Source: an uncultured Mycoplasma sp.
Lineage (GTDB): Bacteria > Bacillota_I > Bacilli_A > RF39 > UBA660
DNA: 64,000 bases
Assembly: GCA_902493595.1 (NCBI GenBank)
Contig: CABUPU010000002.1
Location: 9,942 to 73,941 of the forward strand
Reading direction: 5' to 3'
In this document: piece after piece, positions 26,038 to 40,472 of the stretch
Position numbering within the stretch: position 1 is the stretch's first letter
Layout: each line of letters opens with the position of its first letter
Program-made: the position numbers and the translations under genes
Notes under the pieces: generated by a model
Seen by the model: only the letters and a program-made list of their open reading frames with translations
What the model was told of the DNA's origin: nothing
The model's database searches: none

Positions 26038-27786
26038 ATGAAGTATATTAATGAAGAAGAAATTAACACAATTAGACAGAATGCTAATATAGTTGATATT
26101 ATTGAAAGTTATGGAATTAAACTCGAAAAAAAAGGTAAAGATAATTATGTATGTCTATGTCCATTTCATGATGATCACAATCCAAATATGATTGTTTCTC
26201 AGGCTAAGCAAATCTTTACTTGCTTTGGCGGATGTGGTGCAACTGGTAATGTATTTACATTTGTTCAAAAATATGAAAATGTAAGTTTTATTGAAGCAGT
26301 TAAAATAGTTGCCGAAAAATCTCATCAAAATTTTAATTATGATATTAAAAGTTCTACGGCAAATGATAAATTTAGTAAAGAGTATGAAATCATGGATTTA
26401 TCATTAAAGTTTTTTCAAAATAATTTAGCCTCAGGTGAGGGTATTAAAGCCAAAGAATACCTTTTTAAAAGAGGTATTAATGAAACAATTATTAATGAGT
26501 TTAAACTTGGCCTTTCAATAAGTAATAATAGTTTAAAAAAATTCTTTGAAAGTAAAAATGTCTCTTTAGAACTTGCTTATAAAATTGGCCTTTTAAATAA
26601 AAGTGGAACAGAATATTATGATGTGTTTAATGACCGTATAATGATTCCTATATTTAATCAATCTGGTAAATTATGTGGTTATACAGGAAGATGTTATATA
26701 AAAGATGAAGAAAATAAATATGTTAATTCAAAAGAAAATGAAATTTATAAGAAAAGTGAAGTATTATTTAACTATTTTAATGCTAAAAATGAAATCAATA
26801 AGTTAAAGGAAATTGTTATTGTCGAAGGTAACATGGATGCAATAACTATGAGTACTTATGGTATTAAAAATGTATGTGCTTTGATGGGAGTTGTGCTTAC
26901 AAGTTATCAAATAAACTTTTTAAAAAAACAAAGACTTAAATTAATATTGATGCTTGATAATGATAATGCTGGTAGAACAGCTACTTTAAAAGTCGGAGAC
27001 AATTTATATAATGCTGGTATTGATGTAAGAGTAGTAAGACTTTCTGGAGCTAAAGATCCCGATGAATATGTAAGAAAAAATGGAATTGAGGCTTTAAAAG
27101 AAAATATTAGTAATGCAAGAAAATTTATTGATTTTAAAATTGAGGCATTAAAATCAGACTATGATTTAACTTCAGTTGAGGATATACAAAAATACATACT
27201 TCAGGTACTAGAAATAGTAAAAGGACTTAGTGATTTAGAAAAAAATATAATTATTAATAAATTAAGTGAAGAGTATCGTGTTGATGTTAATATTTTAAAA
27301 AAGAATGTTACTTTTGAAAATAAAAAACCTCTTGTAAAAGAATTACCACAGAAAAAAAAGAAGAGTGGATATGATTTAGCTGTTTCAAATATTATTTATG
27401 GAATGCTTCAGAATAAAGAGTATTATGTTATTTTTACAAATCGGTTAGGTTATTTAAAAAATAGAGTTGAAAGAATGACTGTAGCTTATATAAAAGAATA
27501 TATTGATAAGTTTGGTAACATTGATATTGCAGGTTTTCTAGATTATGTGGTAAAATATGAAGATGTTTATACATTTGTAAGTGATGTTTTATCTAATAAT
27601 GATAAAGAGATAACGGAAAAATGGTTTCTCGAAGCACTTGATAGAGCAAATAATGAAATAGATAAGATGGATTTAAAACAAAAAAAATATAATGCCCAAA
27701 ATGAGCTAGATGCAAATATGAAAATAAATGATGCCCAAAAGTGGCTTGAAAAAAAAAGAAAAATTGAGTATGAGGAAAGGATGTAG
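26038..27786 (+). CDS. dnaG: DNA primase.
   Basis: Zinc ribbon [13 protein letters not shown]...CFGGCG, a TOPRIM domain (EGNMDAI...DNDNAGR) and a C-terminal DnaB-interaction region. Confidence 0.9.
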
Positions 27787-29865: not shown

Positions 29866-31434
29866 ATGGAAGAAGCAAAGAAAAAAAATAATATTTTAAT
29901 AGATTTTATTACTTCATTTATATATATACCAGTTTATTCACTACTTGGAATTAAATTTATTTTATGGGATATGTGGATAATGCTTTTTAATTATTTTGCT
30001 TGGCAACTTGAAAAAACAGTTAATGGTAAAGCTGATAAAGTTGAAACAAAGGAAGAACAGGAACTTTTATATCAAAAAACTAAGGGTAAAAAGAAGAAAA
30101 AAACAAGAGTATATAATTATAGTAAAAGAACTTTAGCTAGATATGAAAAAATGAAAATTGAGCTTGCTAATGATTTAAGAACAAGTGGTGCCACAAGAAG
30201 TAAAAATCCCAATGTATATCAATTTACAGTTAGAAATGTTGCTGGCGATGGGCAAATTTTTACAGGTACAATGTCAGGTCTTTCAAAACTAGATATTAAT
30301 GCATTTTTGGTTAATAAAGGTTATGAAGTATATGATATAAAAACTAGTAAACTAATCAATTTTTTAAATGCTGATTCCTCATTTTTATCAAGAGAAATGT
30401 CTAAAAAAGATCTTATTTTTTTCTTGACTCAACTTTCAACTTATTTAAAAGCTGGTATTACTTTAAATGAAGGTATGAAAATACTAACAACACAAATGAA
30501 AAAAAATAAAAATAGGCAAAGAGTTTTTGAATCAATATGTTATGAACTTCAGCTTGGAGAAACATTTTCTAATGCTCTTCAGAAACAAGGAACACTATTT
30601 CCAGCACTTCTTATAAACATGATAAAAGCAGCTGAAGCAACTGGAACATTACAAGAAACTTTAGAGGATATGGCTAATTACTATACTGAATTAAATAATT
30701 CGCATAAAGAAATGGTTAGTGCATTAACATATCCGGTAATAATTATGATCTTTGCTATAGCAGTAGTAACATTCATTGTTGTGTATGTTGTTCCACAATT
30801 TTCAATAATCTATGATTCTATGGGCTTAACCATAAGTGGAATGACACTATTTTTAATTAATTTAAGCACTTTTTTAACAAATAATTTAGCTTTAATAATA
30901 ATGCTTATATTAGGGTTAATTTTAGTAAATGTTATAATGTATAAAAAGGTAAAAATGTACCGCGTATTTATTCAAGAAATTACAATGAAATTACCTGTAA
31001 TTAAAAATATTATTATATATAATGAAATAGCTACTTTTGCTAAAACATTTGCTTCACTTTTAAGAAATAATGTATTTATTACAGAAAGTATGGGAATTTT
31101 AAGTAAAATTACTAATAATGAAATCTATAAGGCAATTATGTATAAAACCATTGATAATATTGTTATGGGTGAAAAGATTTCTGATGCGTTTAAGGATCAC
31201 TGGGCAGTACCTGATGTTGCTTATTATATGATAGTTACTGGTGAATCAACAGGACAACTTGCAGATATGATGCAAAAGGTTAGTGATTATTATCAAGTTA
31301 TGCATAAAAATACAGTTAATGCCTTAAAAAGTTTAATTGAACCAGTAATGATTGTCTTTCTAGCTGTTATTGTTGGTGGAATTCTTCTTGCAGTAATTGT
31401 ACCTATGTTTAGTGCATATAATCAAATTTTATAA
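29866..31434 (+). CDS. Type II secretion / type IV pilus platform protein (GspF/PilC/ComGB family).
   Basis: Two T2SSF repeats (LTQLSTYLKAGITLNEGMKIL ... and a second copy) and three TM segments. There is a possible N-terminal extension, so the true start may be internal. Confidence 0.75.
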   Translation: MEEAKKKNNILIDFITSFIYIPVYSLLGIKFILWDMWIMLFNYFAWQLEKTVNGKADKVETKEEQELLYQKTKGKKKKKTRVYNYSKRTLARYEKMKIELANDLRTSGATRSKNPNVYQFTVRNVAGDGQIFTGTMSGLSKLDINAFLVNKGYEVYDIKTSKLINFLNADSSFLSREMSKKDLIFFLTQLSTYLKAGITLNEGMKILTTQMKKNKNRQRVFESICYELQLGETFSNALQKQGTLFPALLINMIKAAEATGTLQETLEDMANYYTELNNSHKEMVSALTYPVIIMIFAIAVVTFIVVYVVPQFSIIYDSMGLTISGMTLFLINLSTFLTNNLALIIMLILGLILVNVIMYKKVKMYRVFIQEITMKLPVIKNIIIYNEIATFAKTFASLLRNNVFITESMGILSKITNNEIYKAIMYKTIDNIVMGEKISDAFKDHWAVPDVAYYMIVTGESTGQLADMMQKVSDYYQVMHKNTVNALKSLIEPVMIVFLAVIVGGILLAVIVPMFSAYNQIL

Positions 31435-31444
31435 GGGGGAAATA

Positions 31445-32191
31445 ATGGTAGTATTATTATTTATAATTGGTGCATGTTTAGGATCTTTTTTCCTTGTTGT
31501 GGGTAAAAGGCTTCCTATAAACGAAGACATAATTTTTTCAAGAAGTAGATGCGATAAGTGTAAGAAAAATCTTAAATGGTATGATTTAATACCGATTTTT
31601 TCTTATGTTTTCTTAAAAGGTAAGTGTAGATATTGCCACGAAAAAATAAGCCCCATTAATTTAATTATAGAATTAAGTATGGGATTACTATTTGCTCTTG
31701 GATATCATTTTATTCCAATTGGCTATAATTTTTATACTTATTTAGTATTATCCAGTTTAATGATGATTATATTTATTTCAGATTTTTCTTATTACATTAT
31801 TCTTGATTCACCTCTTATTATTTCTAGTGTTTTATTATTTATTTTAAAATTTATATATTTTGGATATAAAGAGGCATTTTTTAGCTTAATAAGTGGCATA
31901 TTTTTATTTTTGGTAATGTATTTAATTAAATTAATTGGTGATAAGATTTTTAAAAGAGAGAGCCTTGGTGGTGGAGATATTAAACTTTCCTTTGTTATAG
32001 GCTATGCTTTGGGTTTTAGATTATCTTTAATAGCATTAATATTATCATCATTTTTGGCACTTCCTTATTCTGTTGCTTCATTAAAGTTACAAAAAAATAA
32101 TGAAGTACCTTTTGGACCATTCCTAGTATCTTCATTATTCATTGTTTTTCTTTTTCAAGATAAATTTATTAATATTTTAGAGTTACTTTAA
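31445..32191 (+). CDS. Prepilin peptidase (A24 family).
   Basis: An N-terminal Zn-binding CxxC...CxxC (RCDKCKK...CRYCHEK), a polytopic membrane topology and the catalytic region GGGDIKL. The start is chosen at the ATG after RBS AAGGGGGA. Confidence 0.8.
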   Translation: MVVLLFIIGACLGSFFLVVGKRLPINEDIIFSRSRCDKCKKNLKWYDLIPIFSYVFLKGKCRYCHEKISPINLIIELSMGLLFALGYHFIPIGYNFYTYLVLSSLMMIIFISDFSYYIILDSPLIISSVLLFILKFIYFGYKEAFFSLISGIFLFLVMYLIKLIGDKIFKRESLGGGDIKLSFVIGYALGFRLSLIALILSSFLALPYSVASLKLQKNNEVPFGPFLVSSLFIVFLFQDKFINILELL

Positions 32192-33020: not shown

Positions 33021-34714
33021 ATGAATAGTGATTTAAAAATTATAAAGAAAAAATATGGTGAAAATTTTAGTAAATTATGTAGAGAATTATTTCCAAGTAT
33101 TTTAGAAAATGAAGGTGAGTTAGTTTCAATTATTACTTCCTTATTCAAAGAAAGCCATTTTCTTTATGATGATTTAATAACATATGATAGAGTTAAAAGC
33201 TTTCAAAGATTTGTAATGAATAAGTATGATAAAAAATCAAATAGTATAATTAATACAGGAAAATCACCTTATGAACTATTTAAAGAGCAAGGCTATACCT
33301 TAAGAGAATGCCATACTAATGAAGAAATATTATCATATAAAAAGTATTATGCAAAAGGCGAAGAACTTTGTACATTTAATGGTGATAGGCTTAAAACTAA
33401 TAGAGTATTTTTTGCGGTTAAAGATAATGCTTTAGAAATTAAAAGAAAAAGTGAACCACAAAGGGAAGATGAATATGGTACAAGTGTACTTTCACTTCAG
33501 TTTACAATTGACACAAATTATTTATCTATTAAAAATAGATATAATCATACAGTTAATAATCCAGATGCAACATATCAAAATAATTTAGAAAATATAGCTG
33601 AGGGTTTAACATATTCATTTGAAAAATGTTTAGGTATTAAACAAAGTAATGCATATAGTGATTTTGAAATGCCTAATTATGTAAAAACAGATGATGGTAA
33701 ATACTATAGGTATAATTTTGAATGTAATAATATCTATTATTGTGCAGATAATATTATCATAGATTTTTTTAATGAGGTGTCATTTCCTAAAGAAGAATTT
33801 ATTGTATTTGATGGATTTGTTCTTGATTTAGTAAATAAAAAATTAGAAAATTATGATATAAATTGCTATGAAGCTGCTGAGACAGTTTTTAGTAATATTA
33901 AATCTATTAAAATAGAAAAGAATGGTGATACAAAAGGTATATATATTATTTGTGAAGATGATATAAGAGTATATTTTCAGTTAAATAAATATAATCAAAT
34001 AATTAGTGTTGTTATGGACGGTGTAGAAATAATTTCTTCGTGTTTTTTAGAAAATAGTTCGAGTATTAAAAGTTTTTCCTCAAAAGACACAATTAAAATT
34101 GATGATTATTTTTTAACAAAATGTGAAAACTTAGAATATATTTATTTGCCGAAATGTGAAATTATTGGTAATAGTTTTGCTTTTAATGCGAAAAGATTAA
34201 AAAGTATAAATTTACCTAATGTTAAAAAAGTCGGGAATGAATTTTTAACATATAATAAACTTATTGAACAACTTTATATGCCCAACTTAGAAACTATTGG
34301 AAATTATTATTTAAGGGATAATTCTAGCTTAAAAGAAATTAGTTTGCAAAATCCTAAAAAATAGGATTTTACTTTTTAGAAGCTAATAATATTATTGAAA
34401 AAAACTATTTGCCAAATCTTATTAAAGCGGGAAGTAGTTTTTTAAGGGAAAATACTTGTTTAAGAGAGCTTTATGTGCCAATGCTTAAGGATATTGATAA
34501 TAATTTTCTTGAAAATAATCAAGATTTAGAATATTTAAGTTTTCCAGAAGTTGAAACAATTGGAAATAATGTTTTAAGTAAAAATACCAAGTTAAAAAGT
34601 TTTTATATACCAAGAATTCAATTTATTGGAATTAATTTCTTAAAAAATAATCAAGAATTATTGGATAGTTCATGTATATATAGGCAAAGTATGCATAATT
34701 TATTACGAAGTTAA
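33021..34714 (+). pseudogene. BspA-type leucine-rich-repeat (LRR_5) protein gene interrupted by a -1 frameshift at an A6 tract near 34356-34361.
   Basis: Repeated IGNxxFxxNxxLKxIxLP units occur in both ORFs (33021-34364 and 34409-34714). The second frame is open back to 34358 and continues the repeat (KIGFYFLEANNIIEKNYLPNLIKAGSSFL). Confidence 0.6.
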
Positions 34715-36482: not shown

Positions 36483-36982
36483 ATCATCACCATTTAAATT
36501 ATATAATTATTTTCTTTTTTAGTAAATATATTTATAAATTTGCTTTACAGTTTATAATATAATTTTAAAATGTAATGACATCATATTTTCTAAGATAATA
36601 CCTAGCATGAATTTTCCTATATTAATCCAGTACCAATAGTAATATATAAAAAGGCTAGCTAATCTAAATATTATTAAATTTTAATGGCATATATAAAACT
36701 TTAACATTTTATGATGTTGATAATAATGAGTTTGCTATTTATGAGGTATACGATTTAGATTTGGAATGGAGACAATATAAATTTAATGCTGATAGTGATG
36801 AATGAGCATTTGTTATTTTAATGTTTGATGGGCAATCATAGTAACATATTTTGAAGTATAATTGATTTTGTATTTACATTTTTAAAAATATAGTTTGTGT
36901 AAAGACTATATTTTTTCTTTCTTTTTAATTGTAATTAAAGCTTAATTATGGTATCATTTAAAGTAGAGAGTAGGAAGGTTTT

Positions 36983-38158
36983 ATGAAAAGAAAAGGAATG
37001 TTATTTGTAATCGGAGCGCTTTTGATATGTAGTGTATTTTTATTAACAGGTTATATTGTTCATAATAAGAAAGGAAGTAATTCTAAGCCCAATATTTCCC
37101 TTAATAAAAATAATAGTTTTGATTATAAATTTATAAAACAAATTGATAGCAATGATAATATCTTAGTAAGCCCATTATCTATGGCTTATTTATTATCAAT
37201 GATTCAAAGTGGTGCAAAAGGTAATAATTTAAATGAACTTAATATTGCACTTGATAATTATGATTTGAGGCCTTTGGAAAATATAGAGGGAGTAATGTCA
37301 ATGGCTAATAGTATGTGGATTAATAATAGATATAAAAATGATATTAATAGTACATTTGCTACAGCACTTAAAATTAATTATCATAGTGAAGTTTTATACG
37401 ATGAATTTGCAAATGCTGATAATATAAATAAATGGGTTTCAGAAAAAACATATAATATGATTAATGAGTTATTTCCAAGTGATAGTGTAAATCCATATGA
37501 TACAGTTATGGCTTTAGTAAATGCAATTGGTATTAATTTTAAATGGGATGAAGAATTTGATTGTAATAAAACTACAATGGGAAATTTTTTAGATAAAAAT
37601 GTTTATATGATGAGCTCTAACGAAAAATATATAGAAAGTGATTATTATACAGGTTTTATTAAAGACTATGAAAAACTTTCTGATAATTCGCAATATGAAT
37701 TCATTGGACTTCTTCCTAAAAAAGATATTCAAGATATAATTAATAATTTATCTAATGATGTAATAAATAAGTCTATTACAGAAAGTGAAACTTATGTTCA
37801 AATACCTAGGTTTAAGTATAACTATGAAGTAGGTAATTTAAAAAGTAAATTAAATGCTCTTGGTATAAATGATATGTTTATTGATGGTGTAGCCAATTTT
37901 GATGGAATAGCTAAGGATATTTATGTAAGTAAAATTGTTCAAAAAACATATATAGATTTTATGGAAAGTGGTACTAAAGCAGCTGCAGCCTCCGGAGCGA
38001 TATTTGATTCAAATTCAGTTTCAGCAGCAAAATCCGTAATATTCAATAAACCATTTGTGTATTTAATTAGAAAAAAAGGAAGTAACAATATTTATTTTAT
38101 GGGTATTGTAATTAGCCCTATAGAATATGACGAGACAAAAGGTGTTTGTGAAGGGTAG
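36983..38158 (+). CDS. Serpin (serine protease inhibitor) with an N-terminal signal/anchor sequence.
   Basis: An N-terminal serpin motif NILVSPLSMAYLLSMIQSGAKGNNLNELNIAL, a reactive-centre-loop hinge GTKAAAASGA and the C-terminal serpin signature FNKPFVYLIRKKGSNNIYFMGIVISP. Confidence 0.8.
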   Translation: MKRKGMLFVIGALLICSVFLLTGYIVHNKKGSNSKPNISLNKNNSFDYKFIKQIDSNDNILVSPLSMAYLLSMIQSGAKGNNLNELNIALDNYDLRPLENIEGVMSMANSMWINNRYKNDINSTFATALKINYHSEVLYDEFANADNINKWVSEKTYNMINELFPSDSVNPYDTVMALVNAIGINFKWDEEFDCNKTTMGNFLDKNVYMMSSNEKYIESDYYTGFIKDYEKLSDNSQYEFIGLLPKKDIQDIINNLSNDVINKSITESETYVQIPRFKYNYEVGNLKSKLNALGINDMFIDGVANFDGIAKDIYVSKIVQKTYIDFMESGTKAAAASGAIFDSNSVSAAKSVIFNKPFVYLIRKKGSNNIYFMGIVISPIEYDETKGVCEG

Positions 38159-38166
38159 GAAGAGTT

Positions 38167-39915
38167 ATGTTTGGTAAAATACTTTATATAAGTGATAGTA
38201 TGGCATATGTTCAAAATCTTGCGGGAAGTAATGTTCAAGCAGATTTAATGAACATGCATGTAATTTTTGAAAGTAACGGTGAAAGAATTTTAGGAGAAAT
38301 CACTGAAGTTAATAGTAGTGAAATAAAAATTCGTTTCCTCGGAGAATATCAAGGTAATAGATTTTTAAATGGTGTGCTTAGAAAACCTCTTTTATCTTCG
38401 ACTATCAGAATAATTAATGGTGAAGAGTTAATGGCTCTTGTAGGAACATATTCTGAAAATAGTTTTGTATTAGGTCAAAGTGCAATTTATAAAAACTTTA
38501 CAGTATGTCCAAGTATTAATGATTTATTTTCAAATCATTTAGCGATATTTGGTAACACTGGTTCTGGTAAATCTTGTGGTGTATCAAGAATGGTTCAAAA
38601 TATATTCTTAAATAAATTTGCCAAAGTAAAAAATGCAAATATGTTTATTTTTGATGCTTATGGTGAATATAAGAATGCGTTTAGTTCAATTAATACAATT
38701 GATCCAGAGTATAATTATAAGTTTATTACCACTAATCCTAAGGAGACCACTGATGTACCACTTAAAATACCAGTTAATTTATTAAAACTTGATGATTATG
38801 CACTGCTTCTTCAGGCTAGTAAACATACACAACTTCCAATACTTGAAAGAACACTAAAACTATCTAAAATATTTGCTACAGATTCACCTGAATCTAGAAA
38901 ATATAAAAATCATTTAATTGCTAAAGCTTTACTTGCCGTATTATTCTCATCTGAGACCACTGCTCAAAAGAAAAATGAAATATTTACAATTATAGAAACT
39001 TGTCATACACCAGAATTTAATTTTGATACAACTATTCAAGGACTTGGTTATACAAGAAGTTTCTCTGAATGTTTTGAAATTGATTCAAATGGTTATTTTG
39101 GAGAAAGTGTTCTTATTACTGAATATATTTTAAAAAATATTAATGATGAAATTGAAAATCTTTCTCCGGATGAAAATGCTTTTTATTCACTATTAGACTT
39201 TTCAAAAGCACTAGAGTTTACTTTAATTTCTGAGGGTTTCTTACATAATGATACACTTGTGGATGATGCCTCAATATTAAAGGTTAGACTTACTACAATT
39301 CTTCATAGTGAAGTTGGTAATTATTTTGATGGAACTAAACATTATACAAATAATGAATTTATTGATGCTTTAAAATCATTTAATGGTAAAAAAGCTCAAA
39401 TAATTAATATTAATCTCGAGGATGTAGATGACATATACGCTAAAGTTATTGTAAAAATAATGTGTAAATTCTTATTCGATTATTCCAAGTCTTTAGAACA
39501 AAGGGCAAGTATTCCATTTCATTTATTTTTGGAAGAAGCACATAGATATATTCAAAAAGATAATGATACATTCTTACTTGGATATAATATTTTTGATAGA
39601 ATTGCAAAAGAAGGAAGAAAATATGGCGTAATTCTTGATATTATATCTCAAAGACCAGTTGAAATATCTGATACAGTTATTGCACAATGTTCAAATTTCT
39701 TAATCTTTAAAATGACACACCCTCTTGATATTAAATATATTTCAGAAATGCTTCCAAATATTAGTGCAGATATTATTGAAAAACAAAAAACACTTCAACC
39801 AGGAACTTGTGTATCATTTGGTAGTGCCTTTAAAATACCAATGATAGTTAAGATGGAATTACCTAATCCAATGCCTTATTCATCAAACTGTAATGTTTCC
39901 TCTTGCTGGAGATAA
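38167..39915 (+). CDS. HerA-like ATPase (DUF87 / FtsK-HerA superfamily) with an N-terminal HAS-barrel.
   Basis: An N-terminal barrel (ILGEITEV...IKIRFLGE), Walker A GNTGSGKS and Walker B FLEEAHRY. The overall size is ~580 aa. It starts 8 nt after the serpin stop. Confidence 0.7.
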   Translation: MFGKILYISDSMAYVQNLAGSNVQADLMNMHVIFESNGERILGEITEVNSSEIKIRFLGEYQGNRFLNGVLRKPLLSSTIRIINGEELMALVGTYSENSFVLGQSAIYKNFTVCPSINDLFSNHLAIFGNTGSGKSCGVSRMVQNIFLNKFAKVKNANMFIFDAYGEYKNAFSSINTIDPEYNYKFITTNPKETTDVPLKIPVNLLKLDDYALLLQASKHTQLPILERTLKLSKIFATDSPESRKYKNHLIAKALLAVLFSSETTAQKKNEIFTIIETCHTPEFNFDTTIQGLGYTRSFSECFEIDSNGYFGESVLITEYILKNINDEIENLSPDENAFYSLLDFSKALEFTLISEGFLHNDTLVDDASILKVRLTTILHSEVGNYFDGTKHYTNNEFIDALKSFNGKKAQIININLEDVDDIYAKVIVKIMCKFLFDYSKSLEQRASIPFHLFLEEAHRYIQKDNDTFLLGYNIFDRIAKEGRKYGVILDIISQRPVEISDTVIAQCSNFLIFKMTHPLDIKYISEMLPNISADIIEKQKTLQPGTCVSFGSAFKIPMIVKMELPNPMPYSSNCNVSSCWR

Positions 39916-40076
39916 AAAAAGTTAATAGAAAAATTAATGTAAAAGAGCAAGAACTTCCCACATTTAATAGGGTTGGTTTTGTTGCTGCTCAATGGGGAGG
40001 AGTAAGATATTAATCTTACCTCTTTTTATTTTAGTCATTTTTTTATATAATTATAGTATTATTAAATGGAGGATTT

Positions 40077-40472
40077 ATGGATAATAAGAAAGAATATATA
40101 AATAATGAAATTGATACTAAAAAAAGGGAAAAATACTTATTAAAAGTATTTAAGAAGATATCAATCTATGGTTTAGTTATAACATCTATTATACTTGTAG
40201 GTAATGGAGTTGATCATTTAATTGAATCTTATTGTTTAATGGGAGCGGATGGCCTATTTATTATAACAAGTGCATGTAGTTCATATATGCTTAATAATAC
40301 TGAAAAAAAACTTAATGAATTATATGAAAAGAAAATCGAATTAGAAAGTGAAAATAATAATAAAATTGAAACTAATGAAAAAATGAACAAAAATGATTTA
40401 TCATATAATTATGATGAAGATTATACCTTAAATAATGACTTAGGCTTTTCTCGTCGAAGAAGATTGAAATAA
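40077..40472 (+). CDS. Small membrane protein with a coiled-coil tail (hypothetical).
   Basis: One TM (IYGLVITSIILVG) and a C-terminal basic RRRRLK. Confidence 0.4.
   Translation: MDNKKEYINNEIDTKKREKYLLKVFKKISIYGLVITSIILVGNGVDHLIESYCLMGADGLFIITSACSSYMLNNTEKKLNELYEKKIELESENNNKIETNEKMNKNDLSYNYDEDYTLNNDLGFSRRRRLK

Follow-up and report, generated by a model that had tools for sequence, protein, structure and literature searches.

Whether genes packed closely on one strand also work together is the question raised by a locus within a 64 kb stretch of DNA (GC content ~25%) from contig CABUPU010000002.1 of an uncultured Mycoplasma sp., referred to here, at its full length, as the window. At this locus, an open reading frame (ORF) listing gives three co-oriented ORFs of 391, 582 and 131 amino acids (aa), encoding a serpin, a HerA-family ATPase and a small membrane protein, respectively. 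A preliminary description, made from the sequence without database searches, had reported these ORFs together with a gap of 8 nucleotides (nt) between the first two, and all are present where it placed them (Table 1). Two readings had been left side by side, coincidental co-transcription and an uncharacterised module. The former is supported by the present analysis, considering that the adjacency is restricted to one clade and that the 8-nt gap carries no promoter-like or terminator-like site, while the latter is not, as the neighbours of HerA elsewhere are unrelated and mostly housekeeping genes. With a probability of about 0.78, the serpin, HerA and the small ORF are unrelated and stand next to each other through lineage-specific history, forming no functional module.

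The distribution of the pairing was examined by comparing the window proteins with 86 related loci by tblastn. A serpin gene lies directly 5' of HerA in nine of them (L007-L015), all from species-level genomes in which HerA is 87-99% identical, and in none of the loci with a HerA identity of 83% or lower. Across the nine loci the identity of the serpin drops from 86% to 40%, that of HerA only from 99 to 87%, and at least 70 loci without both flanking genes have a HerA that is equally conserved. The preliminary description had stated that ATPase homologs never found beside serpins elsewhere would speak against a link between the two genes, and this is largely what has been observed, with the serpin adjoining such homologs only in a genus-level clade (9/86). 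Two of the nine loci rank differently depending on the gene compared. L012 is closer to the window than L015 in HerA (92% against 87%) and in the serpin (59% against 40%), and farther in ThiF (73% against 81%) and DXS (71% against 80%), with the synonymous divergence (dS) of HerA to L012, 0.71, lying below that of its neighbours (~1.0). Recombination within the genus that involved the serpin-HerA segment is a possible cause of this conflict, as is noise from saturation.

Neighbouring genes were typed by clustering of flanking ORFs, plus Pfam annotation of contigs and representatives. The 5' neighbour of HerA is clade-specific, being AsnA, a sensor kinase, a 150-aa membrane-anchored protein, GatB, an ATP-binding cassette (ABC) ATPase, a germination-protease homolog, MetRS, RNase Y (divergent) or YlxM, and the 3' side is occupied in other clades by RecA (convergent), TatD or Ffh. 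An order of HerA, 6S RNA and ThiF, with the space behind HerA variably filled, is retained down to ~63% HerA identity, and distant orthologs (39-47% identity) adjoin a sulfatase, YqeH and a pilin-like protein, or a bacteriocin-type ABC exporter. No recurrent partner of HerA was found among the 86 loci or the distant orthologs. In nucleotide alignments, similarity to relatives starts at ~36880-36946, just 5' of the serpin, and the segment at ~39920-40620, from the HerA stop to the 6S promoter, is swapped for other sequence in other genomes. Judging from these alignments, both flanks of HerA are variable slots.

The genes at the locus have also been subject to distinct selection regimes. In comparisons made at similar dS (0.13-0.49), the ratio of nonsynonymous to synonymous divergence (dN/dS) is 0.025-0.03 for HerA, 0.04-0.08 for DXS, 0.12-0.15 for ThiF and 0.20-0.32 for the serpin, which places the serpin and HerA about ten-fold apart. 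The HerA protein is more conserved than its neighbours DXS and ThiF in every inter-species comparison. Taken together, its low dN/dS and its high conservation indicate that HerA behaves as a core gene and not as a defence gene.

The transcription signals around HerA differ between the window and its relatives. In the window, the serpin stop codon (TAG, 38156-38158) is followed after the 8-nt gap by the HerA start codon (ATG, 38167), with a Shine-Dalgarno-like ribosome-binding sequence, AGGAAGAG, spanning the junction. Neither a promoter-like site in a consensus scan nor a terminator was detected in this spacer, the fold of positions 38100-38200 being no better than those of shuffled sequences, and because of this the serpin and HerA are probably co-transcribed in the window species. 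Most other clades have TGATATAAT, together with a conserved AGAATAAAGAGGTGT leader, 5' of HerA. Both elements also occur in the 45-nt gap separating HerA from the serpin in L014, a serpin-bearing locus, and indicate that HerA was ancestrally an independent unit. The serpin-to-HerA gap varies from 3 to 47 nt across the serpin-bearing loci, with a consensus extended -10 promoter inside it in L013 (47-nt gap) and L014. A promoter or terminator between the two genes, likewise named earlier as an argument against their linkage, is consequently absent from the window but present, as a promoter, in these two relatives. Behind HerA, RNA folding revealed a terminator-like hairpin, overlooked by a simple terminator scan, with 17 bp and one bulge per arm, which forms part of a -26.9 kcal/mol structure and is present in the centroid. 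Given its position between HerA and the small ORF, the latter is probably transcribed separately from HerA. Two further elements of the preliminary description have not been sustained. Its 500-bp AT-rich region (36483-36982) has a GC content of 0.22-0.23 against 0.22-0.30 in the surroundings and is not unusually AT-rich, and its structured leader is the 6S RNA gene at 40757-40942, which is not a leader of the trio.

The serpin itself is full-length, matching Pfam PF00079 over profile positions 2-370 of 370 (9.6e-60, 203 bits against a cut-off of 27), and serpins in the PDB match it at up to 4e-27, with neuroserpin and tengpin as the best solved relatives. A single N-terminal hydrophobic segment (aa ~6-26) follows the residues MKRKG, consistent with a signal-anchor. 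The hinge, ESGTKAAAASGA at aa 328-339 (E328-SGTKAAAASGA), is canonical, with Glu at P17, Gly at P15, Thr at P14 and an Ala-rich P12-P9 stretch. Counting from P17 (E328), the predicted P1 residue is N344 (codon 38012-38014) and P1' is S345; a gap-free alignment to neuroserpin (P1 R362) also places P1 at N344, and the length of the reactive-centre loop (RCL) is canonical. The clear RCL and signal/anchor sequence noted earlier are both borne out by these results, and the serpin is predicted from its sequence to be extracytoplasmic and inhibitory. Among the nine serpin orthologs the hinge is conserved and the P4-P4' residues are variable, with the exception of L015, which lacks the loop. In this serpin (3846-4964), a deletion of about 10 residues removes the hinge and RCL (EGTMSPNEI----SNNENV), and the adjoining HerA is intact (87%); this copy is probably non-inhibitory or decaying.

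Variation in the loop is also seen at a finer scale, the RCL with its predicted P1 varying more than any other part of the serpin. In 119 same-length serpin variants from metagenomes, the highest positional entropy is found at aa 340 and 344, 36 distinct loop sequences occur, and the predicted P1 residue is N, K, T, Y or S. When the loop (aa 339-351) is compared with those of L007, L008 and L010, 8-10 of the 13 positions differ (Fisher p 1e-6 to 4e-4), whereas only one of the 13 differs from L009 even though the remainder of that protein is 14% different, a mosaic pattern. These features fit a putative inhibitory serpin exposed at the surface and subject to diversifying pressure, a type already known from gut bacteria. 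Serpins had been called uncommon in bacteria in the preliminary description, which holds in relative terms, but those of gut bacteria constitute an established class (PMC5127057, PMC6718151, PMC8233489).

The second protein matches Pfam DUF87 (2e-22) and the PADLOC HerA model PDLC04102 (2e-105). A HAS-barrel (aa 1-~95) is followed by a Walker A motif (GNTGSGKS, aa 129-136), a helical insertion (aa ~205-400), a Walker B motif (HLFLEEAH, aa 452-459, with LEEAH at aa 455-459) and KEGRKYG and SQRP motifs. In 23 orthologs of 38-92% identity, GNTGSGKS, LEEAHRY, EGRKYG and SQRP are invariant, leaving the Walker A, Walker B and arginine-finger motifs intact, and conservation of the N-terminal HAS region equals that of the ATPase core. 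An AlphaFold2 model (predicted local distance difference test, pLDDT, 83.3; predicted template modelling score, pTM, 0.81) places beta-strands in aa 2-82, and Foldseek searches with it return HerA chains at the top, with a probability of 1.0 and template modelling (TM) scores of up to 0.73. The matches include HerA-DUF4297 (9c1m), Sir2-HerA (8sub, 8j4u, 8yhx) and Sulfolobus HerA (4d2i), in agreement with a PDB sequence search. The modelled protein thus combines the HAS-barrel and the RecA-like P-loop core with helical insertion by which the HerA family is recognised. Since it contains no hydrophobic segment, it is expected to be cytoplasmic, and the earlier call of a cytoplasmic HAS-barrel/HerA-type ATPase is confirmed by Pfam, PADLOC and hydropathy alike. 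Homology and predicted fold suggest a hexameric ATP-driven DNA translocase or helicase that would act on the chromosome in repair, recombination or segregation.

Relatives of this ATPase are widespread. Protein searches return thousands of homologs of at least 72% identity in metagenome-assembled genomes of Bacilli/Firmicutes, named at most "DUF87 domain-containing protein", and in a scan of GTDB species genomes at least 310 loci encode a relative, the best (99%) including "Mycoplasma sp. CAG:472" and uncultured gut Bacilli. The CAG "Mycoplasma" bins presumably belong to the GTDB order RF39, and NCBI places the named relatives only in Bacilli incertae sedis. A profile-free, exhaustive search of 1.84 billion representatives yielded only about 12 clusters (50% identity) that align end-to-end at 34-53% identity, beneath which lie defence-type HerAs of ~30% identity with longer N-termini. 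The long homologs (829-943 aa) contain no extra Pfam domain and are probably gene-call or read-through artefacts. Another 582-aa ORF in the window (26038-27786) was considered as a HerA paralog and rejected, as it is DnaG. In the literature, no paper was found linking HerA or DUF87 to RF39 or to Mollicutes-like gut Bacilli.

A partner of HerA was sought through Pfam scans of the window ORFs of at least 120 aa, and no SIR2, DUF4297 or NurA was detected among them, in line with the earlier remark that no partner is evident. SIR2 and DUF4297 were likewise not found in the contig annotations and flanking-ORF clusters beside the examined chromosomal homologs. The plasmid relatives differ in this respect, the closest of them (31% identity, with 98% of the length aligned) each having a SIR2 gene that overlaps the HerA start. 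NurA was found neither in the flanks of 95 loci nor in the precomputed Pfam annotations of the flanks in 11 looked-up contigs. The window ATPase scores far below every NCBIfam HerA equivalog cut-off, reaching 161.9 and 155 bits for the HerA_antiphage equivalogs, whose cut-offs are 850 and 800 bits, and 79.7 bits for helicase_HerA, with a cut-off of 970 bits; it matches Sulfolobus HerA at 111 bits in the PDB sequence search. Among 50,697 phage records there is no full-length relative, only partial weak matches. By these sequence comparisons it is a HerA-family ATPase that does not belong to the Sir2-HerA, DUF4297-HerA or NurA-HerA systems. HerA proteins are known to engage partners via the HAS domain (bioRxiv 10.1101/2024.10.24.620088), and bacterial NurA-HerA and RecJ-HerA interactions have been documented (PMC9960219, PMC4663267), which makes an unlinked partner of the window HerA plausible.

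Pilus-related genes have been observed in the window and near some relatives. The window encodes, at 29866-32191 (+ strand), a PilC-like T2SS-F protein (522 aa) and a prepilin peptidase without an adjacent T2SS-E ATPase gene, as well as a pilin-like N_methyl protein elsewhere (15306-15851, + strand). A gene for a pilin-like N_methyl/DUF6273 protein (L092 7786-8958) lies 12 nt 3' of HerA in one of the distant clades, that of L092 and L093; a link between pili and HerA does not recur across the loci.

The third gene at the locus is less constant. Its product has one strong and one weak hydrophobic segment (one or two transmembrane segments) and a basic C-terminus (GFSRRRRLK), and no Pfam family was found for it. 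Copies in L008 and L009 are 98% identical to it, the gene occupying this position in L015 matches it at 28% identity across the full length, and only the basic C-terminal motif is shared with L011 and L012. The small ORF appears to be a fast-evolving, genus-restricted membrane protein gene in a variable slot. The L015 positional ortholog (172 aa, ~6810-7328) matches Pfam SLATT_5 below the threshold (E 7e-5, 22.7 bits; cut-off 29.5) and SieB weakly, and neither match is reproduced by the window copy. A role of the small ORF as a SLATT two-transmembrane effector was rejected, the window copy having no SLATT match even at E values up to 10.

Considering these results, the history and function of the locus may be proposed as follows. 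HerA would be a vertically inherited, partner-less motor with a core-housekeeping-like character in reduced-genome gut Bacilli, any partner being encoded elsewhere. A gene encoding a membrane-anchored inhibitory serpin would have come to lie directly ahead of HerA in the ancestor of one genus. In the window species, the 3' end of the serpin gene would then have taken over the former HerA promoter region, so that transcription of HerA would probably start at the serpin promoter. The serpin would act extracellularly and inhibit serine proteases, of the host or of microbes, by the suicide-substrate mechanism, with an RCL, including P1, that diversifies between strains. The slot between HerA and the 6S RNA would be variable, holding here a separately transcribed gene for a fast-evolving small membrane protein. 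As for what HerA does, a tentative suggestion, put at rather less than even odds, is that it constitutes an essential, lineage-wide housekeeping motor and a partner-less chromosomal sister of the anti-phage HerAs, engaged in a core DNA transaction such as end resection, segregation or DNA uptake. Such a motor may replace machinery lost in genome reduction, and may illustrate exaptation between defence and housekeeping.

Several observations sit less easily with a chance association. The order of the trio is kept in several species of the genus, the serpin being 5' of HerA in all nine loci and the 3' side being occupied, in at least L015, by a small membrane ORF of distant relationship; within the genus, the arrangement may have been selected for. 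The 8-nt gap has no detectable internal promoter, which implies that HerA depends on the serpin promoter, and for an apparently important HerA to rely on that promoter now would be odd if the insertion had been purely accidental. Concerning the role of HerA, no neighbour and no regulatory motif (such as a LexA/Cheo box, in 85 loci) points it to DNA repair, and its "core" status reflects conservation and synteny in the retrieved loci, not a complete-genome census.

The alternative that survives best does not replace the preferred interpretation but refines it. The ends of double-strand breaks would be resected by HerA together with an unlinked NurA-like or RecJ-like nuclease, on the model of Deinococcus and Thermus. 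The documented interactions of bacterial HerA with both nucleases lend this some plausibility, as do the position of HerA next to recA and rny in some clades, the conserved synteny of MgsA/RarA a few kb 3' of HerA and the conservation of the HAS domain, the usual partner-binding surface, at the level of the ATPase core. Nonetheless, the adjacency to recA is confined to two clades, the absence of NurA from the window and the 95 flanks and the scores below the repair-HerA cut-offs tell against it, and no SOS box (Cheo/LexA, GAACN4GTTC with at most one mismatch) was found within 150 nt 5' of HerA in 85 loci. This refinement is possible but doubtful.

A second alternative takes the ATPase as the motor of an anti-phage system similar to Sir2-HerA or DUF4297-HerA, with the small two-transmembrane protein, the serpin or an unlinked gene as a new effector. 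The defence HerAs are indeed its closest characterised relatives by sequence and fold, and the sub-threshold match of the L015 small protein concerns SLATT_5, a two-transmembrane effector domain of conflict systems. This is countered by the large distance to the antiphage HerA cut-off, the lack of SIR2 and DUF4297 in the window and beside the examined chromosomal homologs, the absence of full-length relatives from phage genomes and a small ORF that lacks a SLATT match in the window and is missing altogether from most clades. A dN/dS of 0.03, housekeeping synteny in 86 loci and presence in at least 310 species are, moreover, contrary to the patchy and mobile distribution that characterises defence genes, and this alternative appears improbable. 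Weakest of all is a genus-specific module in which HerA would, for example, power or regulate serpin export or display via the two-transmembrane protein, or sense and act through its two neighbours: the tight co-oriented packing, the constant serpin in the clade, the weakly related small ORF of L015 with the similar C-terminal motif in L011 and L012, and the known reliance of HerAs on HAS-bound partners are outweighed by the conservation of HerA where both genes are missing, the divergent selection regimes, the varying gap with its promoter in L013 and L014, the hairpin behind HerA, the separate compartments of serpin and ATPase indicated by hydropathy and the loss of the RCL beside an intact HerA in L015, so that this arrangement, like any co-option of HerA within the genus by the surface serpin and the two-transmembrane protein, seems very improbable.

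The features of the locus are collected in Table 1.

Table 1. Features of the serpin-HerA locus; positions are those of the window.
Feature	Position	Strand	Basis and remarks
Promoter-like site of serpin	36929-36957	+	TTGTAA, 17 nt, TATCAT with TG; ~26 nt 5' of ATG; consensus scan only; synteny with relatives from 36878-36946
Serpin gene, 391 aa	36983-38158	+	Pfam Serpin
Serpin reactive-centre loop, aa 328-351	37964-38035	+	
Spacer between serpin and HerA, 8 nt (gaagagtt)	38159-38166	+	Shine-Dalgarno-like sequence; sequence, scan and fold
HerA-family (FtsK-HerA superfamily) ATPase, 582 aa	38167-39915	+	Pfam DUF87, PADLOC HerA
Terminator-like hairpin 3' of HerA, then U-rich tract	39991-40034	+	RNA fold
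Small membrane protein ORF, 131 aa	40077-40472	+	Hydropathy; without Pfam family
6S RNA gene	40757-40942	+	Rfam RF00013
ThiF-family gene	40956-41624		Directly 3' of 6S RNA gene

Beyond HerA and the small ORF, the 6S RNA gene aligns to the entire Rfam model (positions 1-187 of 187) and scores 53.3 bits, above the gathering score of 46.4. An extended -10 element of its own, TGTTATAAT, precedes it at 40745-40753. The RNA gene is found directly 5' of a ThiF-family gene in six other loci as well (L009, L012, L016, L029, L044 and L061). Between the small ORF and this RNA lies a 29-codon ORF, (L)LTISKFYGIIIRMYFQQREYGEPKFKRE (40531-40620, + strand), with a good Shine-Dalgarno sequence and a weak hairpin with a U-run at ~40594-40630. 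Its 29-aa peptide has no match in Pfam; it may resemble the N-terminus of DUF4160 proteins and be a gene remnant.

Other parts of the window carry further features. At 1431-4924, YhcG/DUF1016 PDDEXK-nuclease paralogs occur as three tandem copies (2107-3015, 3031-3663, which is truncated, and 3679-4581), with further partial copies. In L009 (1-2015) and L015 (246-1828), members of this family lie a few kb 5' of the serpin, a placement that indicates a rearrangement of ~32 kb in the window relative to these two genomes, with the break in synteny at ~36880-36946. A cardiolipin-synthase-like gene (PLDc_2, 43535-45055, + strand) between DXS and GpsA is present in the window and L009 and missing from L008, L012 and L015, where DXS almost directly precedes GpsA; L014 has neither this gene nor DXS, and ThiF abuts GpsA. 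A BspA-type leucine-rich repeat gene (33021-34714, + strand) is split into ORFs of 447 aa and 101 aa (34409-34714), both with LRR_5 matches, and may be two separate genes, a frameshifted gene or a pseudogene. No Pfam family was found, lenient thresholds included where tested, for five consecutive ORFs (182-291 aa) at 48292-51943 or for three large ORFs (720, 729 and 763 aa) at 56489-63644, all on the + strand. A CotZ-like spore-coat domain protein (54434-54871, + strand), together with the germination-protease (Peptidase_A25) homolog that adjoins HerA in L048, hints at sporulation-related genes in this reduced-genome lineage.

The tight spacing alone had suggested a serpin-HerA system, a false lead that is now removed. 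What is found instead is a relative of anti-phage motors that is among the slowest-evolving genes of its neighbourhood, occurring without a linked partner in hundreds of uncultured gut species, and an orphan HerA of this kind bears on how HerA motors get recruited into defence. As for the serpin, a prevalent human-gut lineage carries a predicted surface inhibitor, and the variation of its predicted P1 residue between strains suggests strain-specific protease targets at the host-microbe interface.

Besides the siropins, the inhibitory serpins of gut bacteria include the Bifidobacterium serpin and Tannerella miropin. With the gut-bacterial serpins, among them the siropins of Eubacterium siraeum (PMC5127057), the window serpin has in common its complete serpin domain, the canonical hinge, an export signal and its origin in a gut commensal. 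By analogy with the inhibitory serpins of gut bacteria, cleavage of the RCL and covalent trapping of serine proteases would be expected as the mechanism. In contrast to the known gut serpins, the window protein comes from uncultured reduced-genome Bacilli and has a long N-terminal anchor without an obvious cleavable signal peptide, and its predicted P1 is Asn in the window strain and Lys, Thr, Tyr or Ser elsewhere. The ATPase shares its fold and domain order with Sir2-HerA (Nezha) and HerA-DUF4297 (PDB 8sub, 8j4u, 8yhx, 9c1m; PMC11514289; bioRxiv 10.1101/2024.10.24.620088), which are its best matches in both sequence and structure. However, where SIR2 overlaps the HerA start in the plasmid systems, a serpin is found in the window and mostly housekeeping genes in its relatives, and the window HerA has no effector gene, being chromosomal, syntenic, vertically inherited and under very strong purifying selection. 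The hexameric translocase fold is also common to the NurA-HerA systems of archaea, Deinococcus (PMC9960219) and Thermus (HepA, PMC5448004), Sulfolobus HerA being among the structural matches. While the relationship to these systems is distant and the window HerA lacks adjacent NurA, Mre11 and Rad50 genes, they offer a precedent for a lineage-wide bacterial HerA with a housekeeping role in DNA metabolism.

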